This document shows, piece by piece, positions 21,271-54,006 of a DNA stretch of 58,080 nucleotides. Every line of letters starts with the position of its first letter. Position 1 is the stretch's first letter. The notes under the pieces are model-generated. The model did not search any database and was not told where the DNA came from. It saw nothing but the letters and a program-made list of their open reading frames with translations. A program made the position numbers and the translations under genes. Source of the stretch: an uncultured virus (IMG/VR IMGVR_UViG_3300042894_007211) (Duplodnaviria > Heunggongvirae > Uroviricota > Caudoviricetes). The stretch is from the IMG/VR virus record IMGVR_UViG_3300042894_007211; one strand, given 5' to 3'.

Positions 21271-21323
21271 AAAAAGTGTAACTTTCCTTGACTTTTGGCG
21301 TTTATATAGTATATTTATATCAT

Positions 21324-22166
21324 ATGAGAGCACTTAAAATAACCCAATCAATCACTACAAAAGAAACTGAATCATTTAACAAATATCTACGCGATGTTAG
21401 TGGTTTAGATATGATAAACTCCCAAACAGAAATCGAACTGGCTAAACAGATAAAAGCTGGTGATATTAAGGCACAAGATGAATTAGTAAAGGCTAATCTA
21501 CGTTTTGTTATATCAGTAGCAAAACAATATGTAGGTCGTGGTTTAGATATTGAAGACTTAGTATCAGAAGGTAACTTAGGTTTAATTAAAGCCGCACAAA
21601 AGTTTGATGAAACCAGAGGTATTAAATTTATCTCTTTTGCTGTATGGTGGATACGTCAATCTATTCTACAATCATTAGCTGATAATTCTCGACAAGTAAG
21701 ACTTCCCTTAAATCAAATAAACGCCTTAAATAAAATTAAATCAGCTGAAAATGATTTAGAGCAACAACTACAAAGAAAAGCTACTGCATCTGAACTATCT
21801 GAATACTTAGGCGTTACAGAAGATAAGGTTAATCTTTCTATTACCAGTAGTCAAAAGATATCTTCTATGGATACACCTATTGGTGATGATAGTGATTTTA
21901 CTTTAGCAGATACATTTCAATCTTCGGACTTTGCGGATACCGAAATTATACAATCTGATATTTTGCAAAAGATAAATACGGCCCTTAATAGCTTAACTGA
22001 AAGAGAAAGATTTATTATTATCAATCTATTTGGTATTGGAGTTAATGAAATGACTTTGGTAGAGATTTCAAATAAGTTAGACTTAACATCAGAAAGAGTT
22101 AGACAGATAAAAAATACGGCTATTAAGAAATTATCGAAGAGTGGTGTACTTTCTAGTTTAGTTTAA
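21324..22166 (+). CDS. rpoD: RNA polymerase sigma-70 factor, Bacteroidetes primary-sigma type
   Basis: MRALKITQSIT; ANLRFVISVAKQY; KFISFAVWWIRQSI; LTSERVRQIK; no region 1.1. Confidence 0.92.
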   Translation: MRALKITQSITTKETESFNKYLRDVSGLDMINSQTEIELAKQIKAGDIKAQDELVKANLRFVISVAKQYVGRGLDIEDLVSEGNLGLIKAAQKFDETRGIKFISFAVWWIRQSILQSLADNSRQVRLPLNQINALNKIKSAENDLEQQLQRKATASELSEYLGVTEDKVNLSITSSQKISSMDTPIGDDSDFTLADTFQSSDFADTEIIQSDILQKINTALNSLTERERFIIINLFGIGVNEMTLVEISNKLDLTSERVRQIKNTAIKKLSKSGVLSSLV

Positions 22167-28324: not shown

Positions 28325-28678
28325 ATGGAAACTTTAGATAAAGATTGGTGTTATTATTCTGGTATGCCGTCACCTAATGCCTACAAACTATCACTAAGAG
28401 ATTGTTTTAATGAAGACTTTACTGAGTGGTTAGAAAATAGTAATTATATCGGTGATATAAACCCTGATGCTGAATATGGGGTATTAAAAGATATATTAGA
28501 TATCTTACTTATTCACCCAGAAGCTGATTACTTTTGGTATGGATATCCAGAGCATGGTGGTGGGTTATCTTATTCATTACCTCATCACGATACAGTTCCA
28601 GGTGGTGCCTTAAGAGTAGATAAAGATAAAATAAAAGTTTTCTTAAGAGATATAAAATTAGATAATATATTAAATTAA
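28325..28678 (+). CDS. C-tagged hypothetical protein
   Basis: Ends FLRDIKLDNILN. Confidence 0.7.
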   Translation: METLDKDWCYYSGMPSPNAYKLSLRDCFNEDFTEWLENSNYIGDINPDAEYGVLKDILDILLIHPEADYFWYGYPEHGGGLSYSLPHHDTVPGGALRVDKDKIKVFLRDIKLDNILN

Positions 28679-31842: not shown

Positions 31843-32292
31843 TTGATTTAATTTAATTTCTCTTTTCCATTCTTTTAGGTCATACTTAGTTCTATCCATA
31901 TTATAACCTGTCATAAAATTATCATGATGAAAATGATGGTGCATATTATGGATTAAAGATTCAATCTCTTTATCAATTTCTTCTTCAGTTTCTTCTCCAG
32001 TAAATCCTCTGAAGATATTATAAGTAATTGGTCTATCTCCATTTTGATGTATTTGATCCCCACAACTCAATTCAATTTTCCATAGATGACCACATTCCCA
32101 ATACCTACTATCCATAGAGCGGGTAAGAAAGAAAAGACCTTCGGCATCTCTTTCACTAGAATGAAAAAAAATATATAATCCACCCCATCCAGATTTAATC
32201 TTAGTAAATGAATTTGACAGATTATTGCCTGTTACTTCAATACCTGGAAGTGCTTCTATTGTTTCGGTAAGTTGTTTATATAAGTCTTTCAT
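31834..32292 (-). CDS. C-tagged hypothetical protein
   Basis: Ends WKREIKLNQLL. Confidence 0.75.
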   Translation of the reverse strand: MKDLYKQLTETIEALPGIEVTGNNLSNSFTKIKSGWGGLYIFFHSSERDAEGLFFLTRSMDSRYWECGHLWKIELSCGDQIHQNGDRPITYNIFRGFTGEETEEEIDKEIESLIHNMHHHFHHDNFMTGYNMDRTKYDLKEWKREIKLNQLL

Positions 32293-32579
32293 ATTCCTAA
32301 TTCTTTTAGTTTCTCTTCTCTTTCGAGTTGTGTTTTAAATGGTTCTAGTAATCCAAAGTCATTTTCTTCCCAATTATATGACGATTCATCCATTTGTGGA
32401 TTAATAGAAAGAACTTGTAATTCATAACACATCAAATTAAAGAAATGGTCAACATCTGCTTGTCTTAAATTAAAGTGTTCTACAAAATCACTACCAGGTA
32501 AATGTGGTGGAATATATCCAGGTCTTGAATTCTTTCTAAATAACTGTATACAATCTTCTACTAAATAAGTTTCACTCAT
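32289..32579 (-). CDS. C-tagged hypothetical protein
   Basis: Ends LEREEKLKELGI. Confidence 0.75.
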   Translation of the reverse strand: MSETYLVEDCIQLFRKNSRPGYIPPHLPGSDFVEHFNLRQADVDHFFNLMCYELQVLSINPQMDESSYNWEENDFGLLEPFKTQLEREEKLKELGI

Positions 32580-40149: not shown

Positions 40150-41568
40150 ATGAAAATTATAAATTTTTTATCTTTGGTATTTGGTCTAATCATTTTTACA
40201 TCTTGTGAAGAAAGTGGTCCAGAAAATCAAAGGTTTATAAGAAAAGAAATTCATTCACCAGAGGCATTAGAAGATGTTAAGGCAATGAATAAAGCCTTAG
40301 AAATAATGAAGTCAAAAGGATGTCAGGATCCACTTAGTTGGTATTATCAGGGCGCAATTCACTGGGTCCCGGATTCAATTCCAAACAACCAATTTTGTGA
40401 TAGCTACCACACTTTCGTAGATAGTAAATTGGCTTGGAGAAATTGTACACATTCAAAATCTAAGGAAGAAGAAATACATTTTTTAGTTTGGCACAGAATG
40501 TATATTTGGCATTTTGAAAAGATTGTAAGAAAGTTGTCAGGTAAAAAAGATTTTGCTCTTCCATACTGGGACTATACTTCAGGTGATAAGTCAAAGATGT
40601 CACTGCATCCGCTTTTTAGAAATAATAAATCTTATTTATATGAAGACTGTAGATTTGATTCAATCAATAAAGGTTATCCAATTGAAGGTGAGGTAGAAAG
40701 AGCACTTGATATTACAAAATTGATGACCTATACTAGTTATGAGTTATTTAATAAAAATATGGATAGAGCACCACACGGAACAATTCATGATTACATTGGT
40801 CATGGAAATGATTATAATGATGGAAAACTGTGGTTTGATAATCCAATCACTGGAAAAAAATCACACGATGGTTTAATGGGTTGGGTACCAACTGCTGGTT
40901 TCGATCCAATCTTTTGGACACACCATTCAAACATTGATAGAATTTGGCAAAAATGGACTAATTCAGATAATGGTCAAATGATTACATTAGAATTATTAAA
41001 GTCAGTCGAGTGGCCTTACATCTTTTTTGATGAGAATGGCAAAGAAGTAAGGTATACACCAGAACAAATTTACAAGATACTTTATAGTATGGACTATGAT
41101 TATGATGATGCTAAAGTTGAGCCTAAATTAAATCAAATGCCTGTTAAGTTTTCAAATAAACAATTAATCAGTCAATTAAATCCTAAGACTTTATTAAGTG
41201 GTCAAAATACTAAAATTAATTTAGAAAATACTTTAGATGTAAAATCTAAGAGTGTTGTTATTGAAATTGAAGCTTCTTATAAAGAGGTACCATCTGGAGT
41301 TTACGAAGTTTATTTAAACACTAAACAAAGAAAAACAGGATCTAAAAACTTTGTTGGATTTATGACATTCTTTGGTGAAGATCACAAATCACCAGGCAAA
41401 TCTTGTAAAAATGGATGTTGTCAGGCGGTGACAACTGATGGTAGAACAAAGATGAAATTTGTTTTTCAACATAGTTTAGAAAAGAATTGGCAATTTCATT
41501 TTTACAATCACAATGGTTATTCAACAGGTGATTTACGAATAGATAAAATTACAATTAGAAAAAATTAA
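40150..41568 (+). CDS. Tyrosinase/polyphenol oxidase (type-3 copper), lipoprotein
   Basis: FTSC lipobox; CuA IHW..CTH..WHR; LPYWD; CuB PHGTIH..FDPIFWTHH. Confidence 0.9.
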   Translation: MKIINFLSLVFGLIIFTSCEESGPENQRFIRKEIHSPEALEDVKAMNKALEIMKSKGCQDPLSWYYQGAIHWVPDSIPNNQFCDSYHTFVDSKLAWRNCTHSKSKEEEIHFLVWHRMYIWHFEKIVRKLSGKKDFALPYWDYTSGDKSKMSLHPLFRNNKSYLYEDCRFDSINKGYPIEGEVERALDITKLMTYTSYELFNKNMDRAPHGTIHDYIGHGNDYNDGKLWFDNPITGKKSHDGLMGWVPTAGFDPIFWTHHSNIDRIWQKWTNSDNGQMITLELLKSVEWPYIFFDENGKEVRYTPEQIYKILYSMDYDYDDAKVEPKLNQMPVKFSNKQLISQLNPKTLLSGQNTKINLENTLDVKSKSVVIEIEASYKEVPSGVYEVYLNTKQRKTGSKNFVGFMTFFGEDHKSPGKSCKNGCCQAVTTDGRTKMKFVFQHSLEKNWQFHFYNHNGYSTGDLRIDKITIRKN

Positions 41569-44230: not shown

Positions 44231-44659
44231 TTAATCTAAAATCTGATTGATTTTTTCTTCTCGATAACTTGATGTATCCACATCTACTTCGACTACCTCA
44301 TAAAAAGAAACAGTTACCATTTTATAATATTCATTTACTTCATCTTCATTTGCTGATGGATGTAATCTGTTTTCAGTAGATTCCCAGGTGTAGTTTTTCT
44401 TAACTTCACCATACTTTTTAATAAGTGAGTTGTTAAACTCCTCAAATACATCCCACTCGACATTTACACAGTTTTCATATTCATATGCAAAATCAGTAAT
44501 TGAACTTTCTTTATAAGCTTTAATATTTAGTTCTTTCACTTTTTCTTCTGCATCTTTCTTTGAGAAGCAAACAATTTTTGGAGTTCCGCCTTCGGTTTCG
44601 TTATAAATACTATCATCATATTCATAACCTTTTTTCATTACAATATAAGCTTTATTCAT
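44231..44659 (-). CDS. C-tagged hypothetical protein
   Basis: Ends YREEKINQILD. Confidence 0.75.
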   Translation of the reverse strand: MNKAYIVMKKGYEYDDSIYNETEGGTPKIVCFSKKDAEEKVKELNIKAYKESSITDFAYEYENCVNVEWDVFEEFNNSLIKKYGEVKKNYTWESTENRLHPSANEDEVNEYYKMVTVSFYEVVEVDVDTSSYREEKINQILD

Positions 44660-46451
44660 TTGTTTTATTTGTTAATTGATGTTTTACTAATTCTTTATAA
44701 TATTCACAATTTTCTAATAGATAATCATGAGTTCCTTCTGCTAACAATTCGCCTTGCTTAAGAACAAAAATCTTATCACAGTTTTTAACCGTTGAAAGAC
44801 GGTGTGCGATTATAATAGATGTCTTTTCTTTGGAAACGGCATCTATTGATTTTTGAACTACTCTTTCACTTACCGTGTCTAAAGCAGAAGTTGCTTCGTC
44901 AAAGATAAGTATTTCTGGGTTCTTAGCCAAAGCTCTCGCGATACCAATTCGTTGTTTTTCACCACCGGATACTTTAGCTCCACGTTCTCCAACAATGGTG
45001 TCCCAACCATGTTCCAGTTTTTTATAAAAGGCGTCAATACGAGCCATCTTTGATATCTTATTTAACTCTTCATCAGATAGAACCGTTTCGGTTCCATATG
45101 AAATATTATCACGAATACTTTTATCAAATAGATTTACTTCTTGATCCACACTTCCAATTTTCTTTAAGAATGATTTGAGTTCCAAGTCTCTTAAGTTATT
45201 ACCATTGATTAAAATTTCACCACATTGTGGATCAAATGCTCTTCTGACAAGGTTAGCAATTGTTGATTTACCAGAACCACTTTCACCAACAAAGGCAACT
45301 TTTTCACCTTCTTTAATTTTAAAGGATATACCTTTTAAGACCATTTCAGGTTGTAGTTCTTCTTCATCTTTATCATTATGATTTTTCTTTCTAACTGGAT
45401 AACTAAATTCAACATTTTTAAATTCTATATCTCCTGTGAGATTTTCAGAAATTGGATTTTCAATTTCTTCAACATCCGGTTTGATTTCAAGTAGTTCAAA
45501 ATATTTTTCAATGTTTATTTTATCGGTGATAAACTGTTTTTGCATATCAGTTATCATCCAAAGTGATATAATAAAATTTTGAGACCAAGTGAAAATAAGA
45601 AATATCGCACCGGCTGTAATATACCCATTAAATAATAACCAAACTGCAAATAGTATAGTTAAGTATCTAAAACCAGCAGTTCCTATTCTAATAAGTGTTA
45701 ATAAGTTATTACCTGGTATCCAAGTTCTTTGGAAAGCATCTTGATGAACGTCTTGAACATTGTCTAAATCACCTAATGATTTCTTTTCAGCTACTTCATT
45801 TTTAATTAAGAAAACAAAACGGTATAATTCAGAAATAGTTCTAGCTGTTTGGTTTCTAGCATCTCTTACTTCTCTTAATTTAGGTTGTAGATACTTGTTA
45901 AATTTATAAACCGACCATAAGAAAAGAATTGATATTCCTAAATATGAAAATCCAATAACGGAGCTTATGTAGAATAACATAACAATTGAAACAATAAAAT
46001 TGGCAATTGCTGGAAAAAGATGATAAACAAACATCTGAATTTGTCCTTGAACTGAAGTGAACCCAGCTGTTATAATATTTTGTTTAACACCAGAGTGTTC
46101 ATTTATATGTTGGCCATTTGAGAAATTAAAATACTTTGCTATTGAATAATGATTAAGATGATTAGACGCTTTAATATCTAAGTTTCTAATTTCAATATTT
46201 CCTTGAAATCGAATAATGAGTATTCGAATGAGAACTCCAATACCTGCAAATCCTGCAAACATTAAAGCAGTAGACATGTATTGAGGATCATTAGAATGCT
46301 TTTGTATAACATCAAAGATGTTACTTAAAAAGTAGGTACCAACTGCTTCGATAATTGAAGTAAGAAGTATACAAATAAAAATAATTCCGATTGTTTTTCT
46401 AAAGGGCTTAGCGAATTCCCAAATTCGTTTTATTAACGTCCAATTTGTCAT
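44652..46451 (-). CDS. ABC transporter, fused TMD-NBD (ABCB/MsbA-like)
   Basis: TM helices; GESGSGKS; VSGGEKQR; LIFDEATSALD; IAHRL. Confidence 0.93.
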   Translation of the reverse strand: MTNWTLIKRIWEFAKPFRKTIGIIFICILLTSIIEAVGTYFLSNIFDVIQKHSNDPQYMSTALMFAGFAGIGVLIRILIIRFQGNIEIRNLDIKASNHLNHYSIAKYFNFSNGQHINEHSGVKQNIITAGFTSVQGQIQMFVYHLFPAIANFIVSIVMLFYISSVIGFSYLGISILFLWSVYKFNKYLQPKLREVRDARNQTARTISELYRFVFLIKNEVAEKKSLGDLDNVQDVHQDAFQRTWIPGNNLLTLIRIGTAGFRYLTILFAVWLLFNGYITAGAIFLIFTWSQNFIISLWMITDMQKQFITDKINIEKYFELLEIKPDVEEIENPISENLTGDIEFKNVEFSYPVRKKNHNDKDEEELQPEMVLKGISFKIKEGEKVAFVGESGSGKSTIANLVRRAFDPQCGEILINGNNLRDLELKSFLKKIGSVDQEVNLFDKSIRDNISYGTETVLSDEELNKISKMARIDAFYKKLEHGWDTIVGERGAKVSGGEKQRIGIARALAKNPEILIFDEATSALDTVSERVVQKSIDAVSKEKTSIIIAHRLSTVKNCDKIFVLKQGELLAEGTHDYLLENCEYYKELVKHQLTNKTNE

Positions 46452-47371: not shown

Positions 47372-48097
47372 TTATTTAGTAAGTACTTCTCTGTTGTAGT
47401 AATCATCAAAACCTTCAAGCATTTTCTCCATAGAGCTATCACCGATAACCTCATCGATTAAACCAAACTGAAGTGCTTCATGTGAATTGAACCATTTATC
47501 TCTACGAGAAGACTCAATCATTTCCTCAAATGTTTTACCACAGTTTTGTGCTAAAATGTTAAATAAGATATAATTGTATTTGTGTCCTTCAATGTGTGAG
47601 ATTGTTGTGTCCTGAATGTTTCCTTGCATTCCGTGAGAAACTTGGTGTGTCATAACTCGTGAGTTAAGGAGCGAAGAACGCTTTCCTTTTGTTCCTGATG
47701 AAAGAAGAACAGAACCCATTGATGCTGCCATTCCTGTATTGATTGTTTGGATATCCGAATTGATATAGTTCATAACATCAATCATTGATAGTCCTGACTT
47801 AACTGATCCACCTGGACTGTCAATGTGCATTGTAATATCTCGTTTCTCAACTGAATCCAAATACATAAGTTGAGCTTGAACAACTGTTGACATTTGGTCA
47901 TTTACAACACCAGCCACCCAAAGAATTCTATCTCTCATTAATCGTGAGAAGATATCCATTTGTGTTACACGCATTTCTCTTTCTTCTAAGATGTAAGGTG
48001 TCATTGATGCTTCAATTTGTTCCCCATAGTAATTGAGGTTCATTGATGAAATTCCTTCGCTTAGTGCGAATTTTTTAAAATCTTTTCCGTAATCCAT
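47372..48097 (-). CDS. clpP: ATP-dependent Clp protease proteolytic subunit
   Basis: DIFSRLMRDRI, IDSPGGSV, AASMGS, MTHQ, EALQFGLID. Confidence 0.95.
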   Translation of the reverse strand: MDYGKDFKKFALSEGISSMNLNYYGEQIEASMTPYILEEREMRVTQMDIFSRLMRDRILWVAGVVNDQMSTVVQAQLMYLDSVEKRDITMHIDSPGGSVKSGLSMIDVMNYINSDIQTINTGMAASMGSVLLSSGTKGKRSSLLNSRVMTHQVSHGMQGNIQDTTISHIEGHKYNYILFNILAQNCGKTFEEMIESSRRDKWFNSHEALQFGLIDEVIGDSSMEKMLEGFDDYYNREVLTK

Positions 48098-48732: not shown

Positions 48733-49071
48733 ATGAGAATTATATCAAATAGTAAGGGTGATTATGTTCAGGTGTTAGAGGAGTTCCTAGGAATAACCTT
48801 AACAACAGAAAATGAAGTTCGGTGGAGTGTTGTTCTTTATCACGGTGAGGTTATGATATTTCATGAGCCCTCAACTAAATTATATACTAAAGATGAATTC
48901 ATTGAGTATAAAGATAATTTAGGATTAGCTCAATGGCGAAGTTCTTCTCTTAAAAAAGATAGAATGAAACTTTTTGATGAGCTCTTAAAATCTCTTATTA
49001 AATTTGAGAGAGAATTAAAAATAGATAAAGTCTTAAGAGATGAAAATGAATATCAATATTGGCTATGTTAA
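48733..49071 (+). CDS. C-tagged hypothetical protein
   Basis: FERELKIDKVL near end; TATATTTG at 48718-48725. Confidence 0.7.
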   Translation: MRIISNSKGDYVQVLEEFLGITLTTENEVRWSVVLYHGEVMIFHEPSTKLYTKDEFIEYKDNLGLAQWRSSSLKKDRMKLFDELLKSLIKFERELKIDKVLRDENEYQYWLC

Positions 49072-49193
49072 ATAACGAATTGAAATACTTTTATGAAAAT
49101 TTGTTAAAGACATCTGGTGTTCCCTTAAAATACTTTGGTGTCAAAAACATTATTAGAATGAATAAAATAAAAAGAATATTTAATGAAAATTGA
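49065..49193 (+). CDS. 42-aa C-tagged microprotein (not in ORF track)
   Basis: MLNNELKYFYENLLKTSGVPLKYFGVKNIIRMNKIKRIFNEN. Confidence 0.55.
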   Translation: MLNNELKYFYENLLKTSGVPLKYFGVKNIIRMNKIKRIFNEN

Positions 49194-49719
49194 TTACAAC
49201 ATAAACAATACTCAGAAAATTAGTTTGGTCTTTTTAAGATGGTATCCAAATGAAAAGAATTTTGAGGAATTAACATCTGATGATTTTTTTTCAATTGATG
49301 ATATCACAGTTTCAGAAAGTGATGGAGTTATTTCCTATTCTCATGTTGAAGAGCGTCAGTTTTATAAAACTATGCCATCAAATTTATCAGAGGTAAATAA
49401 TAAATTCAATTTCATAGTTGAAATTACTTTTGAGAAAGTAAATTACTTTAAGTCAAAAATAGTTACTGGAAACAAAATGCAATCCATTAGACTTATGACT
49501 TATGAAATTTTATCAAAGTATAAAAAGAGTGAGGTCATTGGAGGAACAGATGCTTTAATGAAACTAAATCATCCTAACATAAATGTTGAAAAAACTCACA
49601 CTATGGAGATTAAACCAGTTAAGATTTTAGAGAAGGATTGTGTAGATGGAAAGTATGAATTGAATTTGCTTATTAAAGAGTTTTTAAGAGATAGTAAATT
49701 AGATGATTTAGGAATATGA
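49183..49719 (+). CDS. C-tagged hypothetical protein
   Basis: Ends FLRDSKLDDLGI. Confidence 0.75.
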   Translation: MKIDYNINNTQKISLVFLRWYPNEKNFEELTSDDFFSIDDITVSESDGVISYSHVEERQFYKTMPSNLSEVNNKFNFIVEITFEKVNYFKSKIVTGNKMQSIRLMTYEILSKYKKSEVIGGTDALMKLNHPNINVEKTHTMEIKPVKILEKDCVDGKYELNLLIKEFLRDSKLDDLGI

Positions 49720-50390
49720 AATTATTAAAACAATATATTGATAAGTTACCTAAAGACTTAAAGTTTGATACTTTTGAGTTTATAAAGAAAAATATACTCT
49801 ATCTTAATGAAGATTGTAAAAACGTTCTAATAGAAGATTTAATTAGAATTGATTTTAATAATCTTTATCCCAATATCATTTTAGGTCTTTATAATGAAGG
49901 TCTTATTGATACAAAGTGGGAAAGTGATATCAAACAACTAAAATCATTTTTAGAGAATGTTGATGAATTAAAAAGAACGACTAAAGAACTTATTGGAAAA
50001 CCTTATGATGATTTACAAGATTCTATTCTCAGTTCTTATAAGTCAGGAAGAATTCATGCTAATGGACTTTATGGTAAAATAAAATCACCATTAGTAGTTG
50101 AGTATTTACATCTAATTTATACTGACATAATTGAAAAGTATAAAGATGATATTGTTTATATTGATGTTGATATGATAATATGTAAAAAAGATATTGATAT
50201 TTCTAATATACCTGCGAAATCTGAAATGTCTAAATTAGAATACTTTTATATTGAAAATAAAAACAGATATATTCTTTTTTACAATGGTCAATTAGAAACA
50301 AAAGGTCATAGTAAATTTACTAATATGGATTTACTACAATTGGTCAAAAGTGAGATTAGAACTCGTAGATTAAATAAAATAGGAATATGA
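49716..50390 (+). CDS. Minimal family-B DNA polymerase-like palm/fingers protein with C-tag
   Basis: DFNNLYPNII (A), RIHANGLYG (B), YIDVD (C), NKNRY; ends IRTRRLNKIGI. Confidence 0.7.
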   Translation: MKLLKQYIDKLPKDLKFDTFEFIKKNILYLNEDCKNVLIEDLIRIDFNNLYPNIILGLYNEGLIDTKWESDIKQLKSFLENVDELKRTTKELIGKPYDDLQDSILSSYKSGRIHANGLYGKIKSPLVVEYLHLIYTDIIEKYKDDIVYIDVDMIICKKDIDISNIPAKSEMSKLEYFYIENKNRYILFYNGQLETKGHSKFTNMDLLQLVKSEIRTRRLNKIGI

Positions 50391-50692
50391 TTGAATTTTT
50401 TATAAAAGCTGAGTTAAAATACCATAAAGTAAGGTATAATTTACAATTTTCCGATGAAAAAACATCTGAAATAATTAAATACATCAAAGAAGGTGTTTAT
50501 GCTTTTCAACTTATTTATAATGAAAATCAACAAGTGATTTTAGTTAAACCTTTAGATTGGACTAAAGTTCGGTCAACTTTAGATTGTTGGTCTTATGATG
50601 GTGGAAAATATTTTGGCTATTCATCAATTGAAACCTTAAAATTAGATATACAAAAGATTAGAGAATTAAAATTAGATAGTATATTAACCTAA
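50387..50692 (+). CDS. C-tagged hypothetical protein
   Basis: Ends IRELKLDSILT. Confidence 0.7.
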   Translation: MIEFFIKAELKYHKVRYNLQFSDEKTSEIIKYIKEGVYAFQLIYNENQQVILVKPLDWTKVRSTLDCWSYDGGKYFGYSSIETLKLDIQKIRELKLDSILT

Positions 50693-51828: not shown

Positions 51829-52080
51829 ATGAAATTTGAATTAGTGATAGAAACAATTAAGAGTATTAAAAAAACTGCAATTGATAAACAGATGTATCAT
51901 TTAGCCGCAAATCTTAGAACAATTGAAAGAGAACTGGAATCTAAATATAAATCTGAAGACCAAGTTGAAGTTTCTCACTTCACGGTTTTACTACAAAGTT
52001 GTTTGATTAGACTTCCAGATGATCAGAGACTTCTTTTAACTCCAATTATTAGAGAGTTAAAATTAAGTCAGTTATTATAA
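51829..52080 (+). CDS. UVR (UvrB/UvrC, ClpC M-like) domain protein with C-tag
   Basis: KKTAIDKQMYHLAANLRTIEREL; ends IIRELKLSQLL. Confidence 0.65.
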   Translation: MKFELVIETIKSIKKTAIDKQMYHLAANLRTIERELESKYKSEDQVEVSHFTVLLQSCLIRLPDDQRLLLTPIIRELKLSQLL

Positions 52081-52102: not shown

Positions 52103-52708
52103 ATGATACCAACTGCATCAGATATAATACTTCATTCAGGACTTCACCCAAAACGCGTGCATAACATTTATGTCTTTGGAAGTCGTGTTTATAAAACCAA
52201 CTCAGATAATTCTGATTGGGATATCATAATGGTCGCAAACAATTCAGTAGAAGCAATTGAGTTGAAATTGGAAAAGTATAACATTCATATTTATACCCCG
52301 GATAAGTTTAAAGAAGATTTAGAGTGGCATCGTATAAACAACTTAGAATGTATTTATGCCCCCACTTGGGCTAAAATTCAAGAGAATATAAAATATGATT
52401 TAGATATAGACTTTCCTAAACTAAGACATGCAACTTCTCATATAAGTTCCAATAGTTGGGTCAAGTGTAAAAAGAAATTAGAAATTGGAGACTATTACAC
52501 TGGAATAAAATCTATTTTTCATTCACTTAGAATTCCGATGTTTGCAACTCAAGTTGCAACTAAAGGAACTATTTATGACTTCGAGGTGGCTAATCCGATT
52601 TGGGAAAAGTTAATAAGTAAAGAATGGACTTGGAAAGAGTTGGACAATGAGTTTAGAGAATTAAGAAATAGTATCCTAACTGAATTTAGAAAGGTGTGTG
52701 AGAAATGA
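52103..52708 (+). CDS. Pol-beta-family nucleotidyltransferase
   Basis: FGSRVY..SDWDI; TATATTTG at 52088-52095. Confidence 0.85.
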   Translation: MIPTASDIILHSGLHPKRVHNIYVFGSRVYKTNSDNSDWDIIMVANNSVEAIELKLEKYNIHIYTPDKFKEDLEWHRINNLECIYAPTWAKIQENIKYDLDIDFPKLRHATSHISSNSWVKCKKKLEIGDYYTGIKSIFHSLRIPMFATQVATKGTIYDFEVANPIWEKLISKEWTWKELDNEFRELRNSILTEFRKVCEK

Positions 52709-52839
52709 ATGAAAAGGAAGTAGAAAAGGCTGTTGAAAAGATGTATCAGAAGTTAAACCCTAAAAGAGGAGCTGCTAGTAGATACTTTAGAAACTATATA
52801 AGAAAAAGAAAAATTAAAAGAATATATGAAACTAAATAA
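52705..52839 (+). CDS. 44-aa tagged microprotein
   Basis: Ends IRKRKIKRIYETK; ATGA-coupled. Confidence 0.55.
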   Translation: MNEKEVEKAVEKMYQKLNPKRGAASRYFRNYIRKRKIKRIYETK

Positions 52840-52957
52840 CATTTCCGGTGGTGTTGATATGTATTATCAATCAACTTTAGTTTATGAGTTAGGTAAAAGA
52901 CTTTTAAGAAAGTCAAATAGAAAAGAAAAAATTAAAAAGTTATTTAATGAACATTAA
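52826..52957 (+). CDS. 43-aa tagged microprotein
   Basis: Ends NRKEKIKKLFNEH. Confidence 0.55.
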   Translation: MKLNNISGGVDMYYQSTLVYELGKRLLRKSNRKEKIKKLFNEH

Positions 52958-53078
52958 GAATTTTGACATAGTTTTAGAGATGCCAATAGGTTTAAATTCA
53001 TTTACACACTCAATGACTATATTTTCATCGAGAAAGAATTTAAGAAAAGAAAAAATTAAAAGAATATGGATGATGTAA
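52947..53078 (+). CDS. 43-aa tagged microprotein
   Basis: Ends LRKEKIKRIWMM. Confidence 0.55.
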   Translation: MNIKNFDIVLEMPIGLNSFTHSMTIFSSRKNLRKEKIKRIWMM

Positions 53079-53269
53079 TAAAAAAGATGTTAGACGAGAT
53101 TTATTTAGATAGAAAGTCTAAGAAATGCGCATTAACAACCGTTGATACATCTTTAGTTAATATGGATTTTGCATCTCTTTATCCTAATCAAATGAAGTGG
53201 TGGAATATAACTCCTGTTCCAGAAAAAGTGATTATAAGAAAAACAAGAATAAAAAGAATATTTCAATAA
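53066..53269 (+). CDS. 67-aa tagged protein carrying PolB motif A
   Basis: MDFASLYPNQMKWWNI; ends IRKTRIKRIFQ. Confidence 0.65.
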   Translation: MDDVIKKMLDEIYLDRKSKKCALTTVDTSLVNMDFASLYPNQMKWWNITPVPEKVIIRKTRIKRIFQ

Positions 53270-53655
53270 TGTATTGTATTTGTTGTAAGAAAAATAATGT
53301 GATTCCTGAGATACACTCTTATACTAAAGAAAGTATGAGAGGTGTGAAAGAGAAAGTTGAAGAAGAAGATATTCTTTGGAAAGATTCTAAAAGACCTGAT
53401 GGTAGTTTAGTTAATGTCAATAATGAAATGATTGACAATGGAATCATACACATAATTGATGCTGGTTATGGATCAACACACGATGGTGATCAATTTGTTA
53501 TTGCTATTTGTGATTATTGTATTAAAGAGAATTTAGAAGATGCAACACTTCTTTATTATGATAGCATGTTTGATCGAGAAGAATATGTTGAAGAAGAAAG
53601 GGAAAAATCTAAACAAAAATATAGAAGAAGAAAGAACTTAGATGGATTAGTCTAA
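53269..53655 (+). CDS. Zn-binding hypothetical protein (start MYCICC)
   Basis: CICC...CDYC; ends RRKNLDGLV. Confidence 0.7.
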   Translation: MYCICCKKNNVIPEIHSYTKESMRGVKEKVEEEDILWKDSKRPDGSLVNVNNEMIDNGIIHIIDAGYGSTHDGDQFVIAICDYCIKENLEDATLLYYDSMFDREEYVEEEREKSKQKYRRRKNLDGLV

Positions 53656-54006
53656 TAGATTATCCAATCTAAGCTCTCTTAAAATTCTAAGTCTATCTTC
53701 TTCTTCTGGAATAAACTTAATTGGATGAACATCTTTTCTATAGTTGCTACCAACATAGTCAACATCTAAATTCCATCCCCAAATATGTTCGATGTATCCG
53801 GTAATTTCAATTAAATTACCCCCTGTGTTTTTCCCAATCAAAATAGATTTTCCACGCATTCCAATTGGATACCATTTTTTAAGTAATTCTAATTGAAAAT
53901 CCTTATCAGTTCTATTCCAACGCATACAATCCAATGGAATTGTGTTTTGTTCAGAATTAAACCGATAAGGCCAGTAATTTAAGTATTTTTTACCGAAGGT
54001 GCTCAT
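53647..54006 (-). CDS. C-tagged hypothetical protein
   Basis: Ends LRELRLDNLLD. Confidence 0.75.
   Translation of the reverse strand: MSTFGKKYLNYWPYRFNSEQNTIPLDCMRWNRTDKDFQLELLKKWYPIGMRGKSILIGKNTGGNLIEITGYIEHIWGWNLDVDYVGSNYRKDVHPIKFIPEEEDRLRILRELRLDNLLD

Follow-up and report, generated by a model that had tools for sequence, protein, structure and literature searches.

The question raised by a 58,080-base stretch of DNA from an uncultured tailed phage (IMG/VR record IMGVR_UViG_3300042894_007211, Caudoviricetes; 30% GC; hereinafter the window) is why four overlapping open reading frames (ORFs), which follow a nucleotidyltransferase (NTase) gene, all end in nearly the same basic peptide, and why the last of them contains a sequence resembling motif A of family B DNA polymerases (PolB). 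Taken jointly, the observations described below make it very likely that these ORFs are real genes, that their C-terminal tails belong to a helical tag used across a lineage of huge phages, that the remainder (the cargo) of the fourth protein is derived from PolB and conserved as a peptide, and that pieces of the capsid protein are cargos in related phages. The array and the NTase gene that serves as the synteny anchor are as follows (aa, amino acids).

52103..52708, + strand: NTase, 201 aa (Pfam Polbeta, PF18765, E=9.8e-7; NTP_transf_2, E=1.7e-5)
52705..52839, + strand: ORF1, 44 aa, tail IRKRKIKRIY, no known relative of the cargo
52826..52957, + strand: ORF2, 43 aa, tail NRKEKIKKLF, no known relative of the cargo
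52947..53078, + strand: ORF3, 43 aa, tail LRKEKIKRIW, no known relative of the cargo
53066..53269, + strand: ORF4, 67 aa, PolB-derived microprotein, tail RKTRIKRIF

An earlier note on this DNA described four consecutive overlapping ORFs of 44, 43, 43 and 67 aa with the shared ending RKx[KR]IK[RK][IL][FYW], and both are indeed there: all four ORFs are present on the + strand and end in RKRKIKRIY, RKEKIKKLF, RKEKIKRIW and RKTRIKRIF, respectively. The ORF1/2, ORF2/3 and ORF3/4 overlaps are 14, 11 and 13 nt; the start of ORF1 lies inside the NTase stop (an ATGA overlap), and the end of ORF4 overlaps the first base of the start codon of a 128-aa Cys-rich ORF. Neither a terminator nor an excess of sigma-70-like promoters was found within the array, which is probably co-transcribed with the upstream NTase gene and translationally coupled to it.

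The evidence that ORF4 contains a piece of PolB comes from profile comparisons. The protein can be divided into three segments (pLDDT is the per-residue confidence of the AlphaFold2, AF2, model).

53069..53140, + strand: N-terminal helix, residues 2-25 (pLDDT 83-90), resembling a PolB helix
53147..53224, + strand: motif A segment, residues 28-53, LVNMDFASLYPNQMKWWNITPVPE (pLDDT 55-66, mostly extended)
53222..53263, + strand: C-terminal tag helix, residues 53-66, predicted with confidence (pLDDT 92-94)

The motif A-like core, DFASLYPNQMKWWNI, occupies residues 34-48. Scans started with the single sequence give weak matches (PHROG DNA polymerase, E=0.003; Pfam PF00136, E=0.017, which falls short of the cutoff). 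A search of a large protein database yields 21 relatives of ORF4, and in the resulting alignment of 22 sequences (27-97% identity) D34, Y39, R58 and I62 are invariant, whereas F35, S37 and L38 (at least 90%), I65 and F66 are nearly so. An hhalign comparison of this family with 60 true PolBs places columns 30-53 on the motif A block with the probability of 97.9% and E=4.3e-13 over 24 columns. When a hidden Markov model (HMM) of the 60 true PolBs is run over 2,125 small ORFs, ORF4 is retrieved with E=8.6e-10 and the top ranks hold ORF4-type sequences only. The 79-aa ortholog of ORF4 in LR745206.1 matches the PolB of its own genome with z=6.0, a score reached by 0 of 300 shuffles. The homology includes the conserved catalytic Asp, the Tyr, which we take to be the steric-gate residue, and the following N-I-x-P. 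Thus, the close copy of PolB motif A that had been read from the sequence by eye is significant against PolB profiles, and its Asp and Tyr are invariant. Two broader searches added nothing: a scan of viral contigs with the ORF4 alignment matched 508 stretches, none of which was confirmed, and a search of the ESM Atlas with ORF4 gave no usable match.

Comparison of the microprotein with the polymerase gene at the codons of identical residues shows the third position to be the same in 5 of 11 and in 6 of 10 cases, and that Ser is encoded by AGC in one and TCG in the other. The synonymous sites therefore differ, so that selection acts on the ORF4 peptide and not on a DNA copy, and gene conversion with polB, as well as a copy kept as a DNA target site, is rejected.

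The N-terminal helix of ORF4 looks PolB-derived as well, judging from sequence comparison, but its exact origin is ambiguous. Compared with the first fingers helix of the phage PolB, it attains a score that is reached by 1 of 1000 shuffles, and hhalign aligns the two with E=0.002 and the probability of 14%; the helix is also reported as a second HMMER domain in 9 members of the ORF4 family. Since the first fingers helix is the element matched, the two PolB pieces would occur in ORF4 in swapped order. With archaeal polymerases of the KOD type, a collinear alignment is found instead (helix-Y.GG-motif A, residues 376-417; best E=0.04), and 58 of the 60 chains among the matches listed for this search are family B polymerases. 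The AF2 model of ORF4 consists of two helices and a low-confidence extended centre that carries DFASLYP (predicted template modelling score, pTM, 0.28); it is not compact, and its appearance is that of a peptide that would acquire its fold upon binding a partner. A derivation of the tail itself from the KxY or fingers region of PolB was considered and rejected, as the tail helix has no significant similarity to PolB.

That the small ORFs are genes is indicated by their recurrence in related genomes. Among public sequences, the window is closest to two records of uncultured phages, 635 and 642 kb in length, and its NTase gene is shared with IMG/VR contigs of 284-476 kb; G001 (436 kb), the complete genome most closely related to the window, was used for comparison. 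Altogether 25 NTase loci were compared, namely the window, two GenBank records and 22 IMG/VR loci, and one to four tagged small ORFs directly follow the NTase gene on the + strand in 14 of these. Orthologs of ORF1 are found in loci L006 and L060, that of ORF2 in L006, and that of ORF3 (47 aa) in L007. The ratio of nonsynonymous to synonymous substitution rates (dN/dS) is 0.25 for ORF1 against L006, 0.53 for ORF2 and 0.13 for ORF3; over all pairs, the small ORFs give 0.13-0.56 against 0.09-0.17 for the adjacent NTase, with small substitution counts. For ORF4, dN/dS comes from distant pairs, and a metagenome scan, in which true PolBs predominated (62 long frames against 8 short ones), yielded no DNA of a close relative. 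The ORFs are, accordingly, conserved as syntenic orthologs in related huge phages, with dN/dS below 1.

Contigs assembled from three metatranscriptome libraries of different studies span positions 52421-52730, 52843-53061 and 52919-53182 at approximately 95-97% identity. ORF2 is overlain by one of these contigs, X22 (52843-53061), and ORF3 by X21 and X22; within ORF3 and ORF4, 8 of the 12 differences listed fall on third codon positions. This is weak evidence of transcription because metatranscriptome libraries can hold DNA.

A comparison across related genomes, which the earlier note had proposed, shows that tagged ORFs recur but the composition of the array varies even among close relatives: L006 lacks ORF3 and ORF4, L007 carries three other combinations, and L060 has a different second member. 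In addition, P0021, a 48-aa database protein present on 5 contigs, combines the N-terminus of an ORF4-type protein with the tail of an ORF3-type one, which is evidence of recombination between array members. Given this variation and the chimera, shuffling does happen. Five overlapping paralogs of about 73-86 aa follow one another in tandem downstream of a motif A microprotein of a more distant lineage (L125, 1948-3088, + strand), each paralog ending in a tag-like stretch, ..[YF]R[RK].K[LI].K[LI]...

The recurrence of the tail in the array exceeds chance. A six-frame scan with the pattern [RK].[RK][IVL][RK][RK][ILVM][FYW] finds exactly four occurrences, all of them in the array ORFs, 1-3 residues before the stop. 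A weight matrix trained on 18 syntenic tails, the four of the array included, scores the array ORFs at 24.5-30.3. An ORF that did not contribute to the training scores 26.6 and represents a fifth tagged microprotein; the next-best small ORF of the window reaches 3.3, and the control maxima are 17.5 for reversed and 6.4 for shuffled sequence.

49065..49193, + strand: fifth tagged microprotein, 42 aa, tail RMNKIKRIF

This gene sits between tagged genes of 112 and 178 aa, two genes upstream of a small polymerase-like gene discussed below. In G001, nine untrained small ORFs score 11.0-18.8 against control maxima of 9.3 and 8.7, and one of the nine is a Cys-rich gene and probably spurious. The possibility that the strict basic tag occurs on many large proteins was rejected, the strict pattern in G001 being confined to the array and junk frames.

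A more general form of the tag is widespread. Defined as [RK]..[RK][ILMV]..[ILMV][ILMVFYWG] ending no more than 8 residues from the stop (R-x-x-K-Φ-x-x-Φ-Φ), it ends 14 of 87 crudely called genes of the window, where 0.3 are expected from its internal rate, and 32 of 492 genes of G001 (2.0 expected), so that about 7-16% of genes in these huge phages carry it. The endings ..LRDSKLDDLGI and ..IRELKLDSILT are typical. The four array tails fit the general pattern and therefore represent a basic (K/R-rich), aromatic-ended sub-type of a lineage-wide tag; furthermore, the general form is carried by ordinary phage proteins of 70-230 aa, and the tag is therefore not special to a peptide library. Two neighbours of the array illustrate the general form.

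51829..52080, + strand: 83-aa neighbour ending IRELKLSQLL
53647..54006, - strand: 119-aa neighbour ending LRELRLDNLLD, syntenic in relatives

Further examples of the form (L/I)R.xK(L/I)xx(L/I)(G/L)(I/L), to which these two also belong, are 49183-49719, 50387-50692, 28325-28678 and, on the - strand, 32289-32579. The C-terminus of the NTase (52660-52705), which ends in ..FRELRNSILTEFRKVCEK and is conserved in L001 and L058, resembles the tail sub-type of the capsid pieces described below (R.NSI..F), and the NTase may itself be a tagged protein. The window also encodes a ClpP-family protease (47375-48097, - strand; E=2.9e-53), a candidate partner for C-terminal tags, as any ClpX-like protein acting with it would be.

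No such origin as that of ORF4 could be traced for the other members of the array. No Pfam or PHROG family was found for ORFs 1-3, and their comparison with the N-terminal and C-terminal halves of the phage PolB (PolB-N and PolB-C) detects no similarity above shuffles. That they are diverged paralogs of ORF4 is unsupported: a tail-masked ORF4 profile matches ORF1 with a non-significant E=0.45 and does not have ORF2 or ORF3 among its matches, hhalign of ORFs 1-3 to PolB gives nothing, and the tail alone is common to all. The fifth microprotein likewise has no family match and no match to PolB. The suggestion that short fragments of conserved proteins are fused to the tag thus stands for ORF4 and for the capsid pieces in relatives but not for ORFs 1-3, which have no detectable parent. 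The further proposal of a peptide library fails within this array, which contains a single such fragment, ORF4, because ORFs 1-3 show neither a parent nor similarity to ORF4 beyond the tail.

The context of the ORF4 cargo is the unusual organization of PolB in these phages. The PolB of this lineage is split within the fingers domain, the PolB-N and PolB-C genes being approximately 100 kb apart. PolB-N (508-513 aa) ends just past the first fingers helix, and PolB-C (474-477 aa) starts before motif B. Both the first fingers helix and the strand and helix of motif A belong to PolB-N and presumably pack against PolB-C. The following split PolB genes were identified.

L004, 385-1926: split PolB gene
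L003, 442-1866, - strand: split PolB gene
L028, 1498-3024, - strand: split PolB gene
L057, 1501-2934: split PolB gene

The split-form PolB-C has 1412 database relatives. G001, a further genome, G002, and LR745206.1 each have an intact PolB-N that includes a motif A of its own; a PolB-C search of G002 found nothing, although PolB-N is present there. The C-terminus of PolB-C, ...LSVVMDIF[GS]GF.., is hydrophobic, unlike the tag.

A PolB search of the window found none, and a small PolB-like protein was identified separately.

49716..50390, + strand: mini-PolB (palm and fingers), 224 aa, ending in the general tag IRTRRLNKIGI, 64 relatives

Its sequence contains, in order and conserved in the family, motif A (RIDFNNLYPNII), a motif B-like block ANGLYGKI, a motif C-like block VYIDVDM, which reads YNDTDS in distant members, and a KxY-like NRY. 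D150 and D152 are invariant in the family, and there is no exonuclease or thumb. The family profile matches family B polymerases in the PDB, from E=2.5e-5, and the AF2 model (pLDDT 85.5, pTM 0.77) retrieves PolB-family chains in a Foldseek search, these being 47 of 47 among the matches listed. The mini-PolB might serve as a minimal nucleotidyltransferase or as a regulatory subunit. One lineage has, then, put PolB sequence to three uses: a split replicase, a 224-aa mini-PolB and a 67-aa microprotein.

Cargos related to a second core protein are found in relatives of the window. A 66-aa tagged ORF of G001 matches the Gp23 capsid protein (Pfam E=5.5e-5, 23.2 bits, with the cutoff at 24.4; PHROG major head protein, E=4.4e-4), and a genome-wide capsid search in G001 retrieves, besides the intact capsid gene (590 aa), three more matches to small fragments. 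The pieces form two families, M1 and M2, which correspond to adjacent profile positions, 129-180 and 169-194.

G001, 128112-128312, + strand: tagged capsid-piece microprotein
G001, 179021-179230, - strand: tagged capsid-piece microprotein
L128-L132: tagged capsid-piece microproteins; the tails of both families are of the R[RK].[NS]SINKIF type

Small-ORF orthologs of M1 and M2 are present in 2 and 3, respectively, of 5 related genomes searched. M2 aligns with residues ~353-398 of the G001 capsid protein with scores that 0 of 500 shuffles reach for three of four members; the similarity of M1 to the same protein is weaker (4 of 500 shuffles at best). A third small Gp23-like frame (G001, 350686-351078, - strand) has no clear tail. 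Other candidate cargos did not hold up. A BLAST search against 339 large G001 ORFs supports the PolB link alone, a terminase Walker A cargo is weak (PHROG E=0.11), and a sheath N-terminus cargo has no profile match. Tagged small ORFs with a motif B-like sequence, ..[KQ]I..NS.YG.., align at the right position of the PolB-C profile, but not significantly (E=0.65 and 1.0).

L062, ~1380-1492, + strand: motif B-like tagged small ORF
L063, 3-125, + strand: motif B-like tagged small ORF
G001, 165670-165849, - strand: motif B-like tagged small ORF

In L062 and L063, these ORFs lie directly upstream of the motif A microprotein. Most tagged microproteins of G001 have no detectable parent.

The preferred hypothesis for the combination of a shared tail with core-protein cargos is that such microproteins are address-tagged peptide mimics of core-protein segments. 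As a whole, including this mechanism, the statement is offered tentatively, as a real possibility and not yet as a probable explanation. The tail would be a docking helix read by one common putative partner, and the cargo a flexible peptide that folds on its target; cargos derived from core proteins would mimic the corresponding segments of their parents and act as competitive or dominant-negative ligands or decoys. The most concrete target for ORF4 would be the PolB-C half of the split polymerase, which is the best candidate because ORF4 copies PolB-N elements that presumably dock onto PolB-C.

Several observations weigh against this hypothesis. Three of the four array ORFs are without an identifiable parent protein. 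The PolB pieces of ORF4 are swapped relative to the phage PolB profile, yet collinear with archaeal PolBs. The motif A of the ORF4 ortholog in L007 has decayed to YDRIIYP, and G001, for all that its PolB is split, lacks a gene of the ORF4 type. The invariant Asp and Tyr are not obviously needed for mimicry of an interface, and the capsid pieces are, as we understand the fold, core elements rather than obvious subunit interfaces. Finally, the RNA libraries that cover the array can contain DNA.

A related conflict scenario, which appears doubtful, is that the microproteins are dispersed, address-tagged copies of conserved, buried core segments, which would serve as competitive ligands against host sensors or against the split polymerase or capsid assembly of co-infecting rival phages, with the tail leading to a common hub. 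The supported cargos would then be PolB motif A with the PolB helix, and a central segment of the capsid protein; PolB motif B and terminase Walker A might be further ones.

The principal alternative to peptide mimicry is gene birth from a tag cassette, whereby a recombination-prone tag module captures arbitrary DNA, any function is exerted via the tag and the origin of the cargo is incidental. This would readily account for the cargos without a detectable parent (ORFs 1-3, the fifth microprotein and most of those in G001), for the differences in array content between L006, L007 and L060, and for the chimeric P0021. We nevertheless consider it unlikely because the motif A residues are the best-conserved part of the cargo across 27-97% identity while synonymous sites vary, and because the capsid-piece families are kept across 3-4 genomes.

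The genomic context suggests a different explanation, namely that the microproteins are partners of the NTase (substrates, regulators or antidotes); the NTase might, for instance, nucleotidylylate DFASLYP at its Ser or Tyr. The ATGA overlap and the presence of tagged microproteins after the NTase gene in 14 of 25 loci fit such a role, as does the fact that, where motif A microproteins occur in independent metagenome loci, the NTase gene precedes them in 3 of 7. This explanation is improbable given that 11 of the 25 NTase loci have no tagged microprotein, that no NTase is found in the available flank at the other 4 of the 7 metagenome loci, with a different gene preceding the motif A microprotein in L059 and L125, and that other tagged microproteins adjoin unrelated genes. 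The linkage of microprotein and NTase is thus lineage-specific.

It is also quite improbable that the tail, which is basic and amphipathic, is a helix that binds membranes or nucleic acids and simply localises small effectors. The membrane-targeting sequences of MinD and FtsA and basic DNA-sliding peptides provide models, and the tail is indeed a strongly basic helix of short length, which ends in an aromatic residue and has its hydrophobic residues spaced i, i+3 and i+4. However, many larger proteins end in an acidic or neutral variant, R[DE].KL[DN].LGI, and because this has the same spacing, a specific protein reader fits better than a charge-driven surface.

Still less credit can be given to an element acting at the DNA or RNA level, in which an A-rich 3' repeat would be an initiation or coupling cassette and the peptide tail a by-product. 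The tail-coding sequence is very A-rich, and each such stretch of the array extends up to, or almost up to, the start codon that follows. Against this, the next start lies in varying frames and at varying offsets, the dN/dS values are below 1, and replacements between tails are conservative in amino acids (K/R, I/L, F/Y/W). The tail is retained where no same-strand gene follows (L001, L015, L016 and L025) and, since it persists without an overlapping downstream gene, is not merely an initiation region; elsewhere, its 16-nt core occurs about as often as chance predicts (2 additional matches with 2 mismatches, 1.65 being expected). From these patterns of substitution and retention, the tail is judged to be selected as protein.

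Finally, the notion that the ORFs are core-gene debris, either pseudogene pieces or exons read through into a conserved intron or insertion, is barely credible and largely refuted: PolB is truly split in this lineage and PolB motifs are frequent targets of mobile elements, but PolB-N is intact in G001, G002 and LR745206.1, no remainder of a parent gene lies beside the tagged microproteins, an Rfam search of 138 kb found no intron and no family match, and the ORFs are under purifying selection and conserved across genomes.

Other genes of the window encode an ABC exporter-type protein (44655-46451, - strand), a tyrosinase-domain protein (40150-41565, + strand) and a sigma-70 factor (21288-22163, + strand). 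On a conservative reading of the results, at least five real genes of 42-67 aa, a size that ORF callers tend to miss, are added. Should the microproteins prove to be peptide mimics, phages would be seen to evolve natural dominant-negative or decoy peptides from their own essential proteins together with a portable address helix, a simple and evolvable means of regulating or attacking protein assemblies. The widespread C-terminal tag of huge phages would also gain tiny cargos with identifiable origins, which would be the easiest handles on the tag reader.

Compared with family B DNA polymerases (PF00136), ORF4 shares the motif A strand and helix in residues 28-53 and one further matching helix; motif B, motif C, KxY, thumb and exonuclease are not present, and a 67-aa protein without these therefore cannot be a polymerase. 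The tag is reminiscent of phage T4, where gp43, gp33 and gp55 have a short common C-terminal clamp-binding tail that docks otherwise unrelated proteins on one partner. The tag is likewise a short C-terminal peptide on otherwise unrelated proteins; however, PolB-C in these phages has a hydrophobic C-terminal tail of another kind, and the tag is basic/amphipathic and far more widespread. Full-text literature searches, which did not cover supplements, found no description of such tags or fragments, nor is there one in passages of a jumbo-phage survey (PMC7824862) and of 10.64898/2026.06.04.730250.

The cargos have parallels of their own. Eukaryotic microProteins are small relatives of multi-domain proteins that interfere with complex formation (PMC6003976, PMC4807768). 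ORF4 is likewise small and derived from a segment of a larger protein, which cannot be said of ORFs 1-3; the action proposed for it, non-productive binding, would be of the same kind, but ORF4 is phage-encoded, its cargo is a sub-domain peptide instead of a whole interaction domain, and it carries an additional lineage-wide tag. Fragments of essential bacterial proteins can inhibit the interactions of their parent proteins (PMC9245647); the dominant-negative fragments described there are engineered, whereas the phage microproteins are natural, conserved genes. For the capsid pieces, the nearest precedent is the Gol peptide of T4, a short stretch of the major capsid protein that alone suffices to engage a host defence, the Lit protease, and lies in the first quarter of gp23 (PMC3014915). 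M2 corresponds to residues 353-398 of a 590-residue capsid protein and, judged by relative position, is therefore probably derived from a different region; furthermore, Gol is not a separate gene, whereas the capsid-piece microproteins are.

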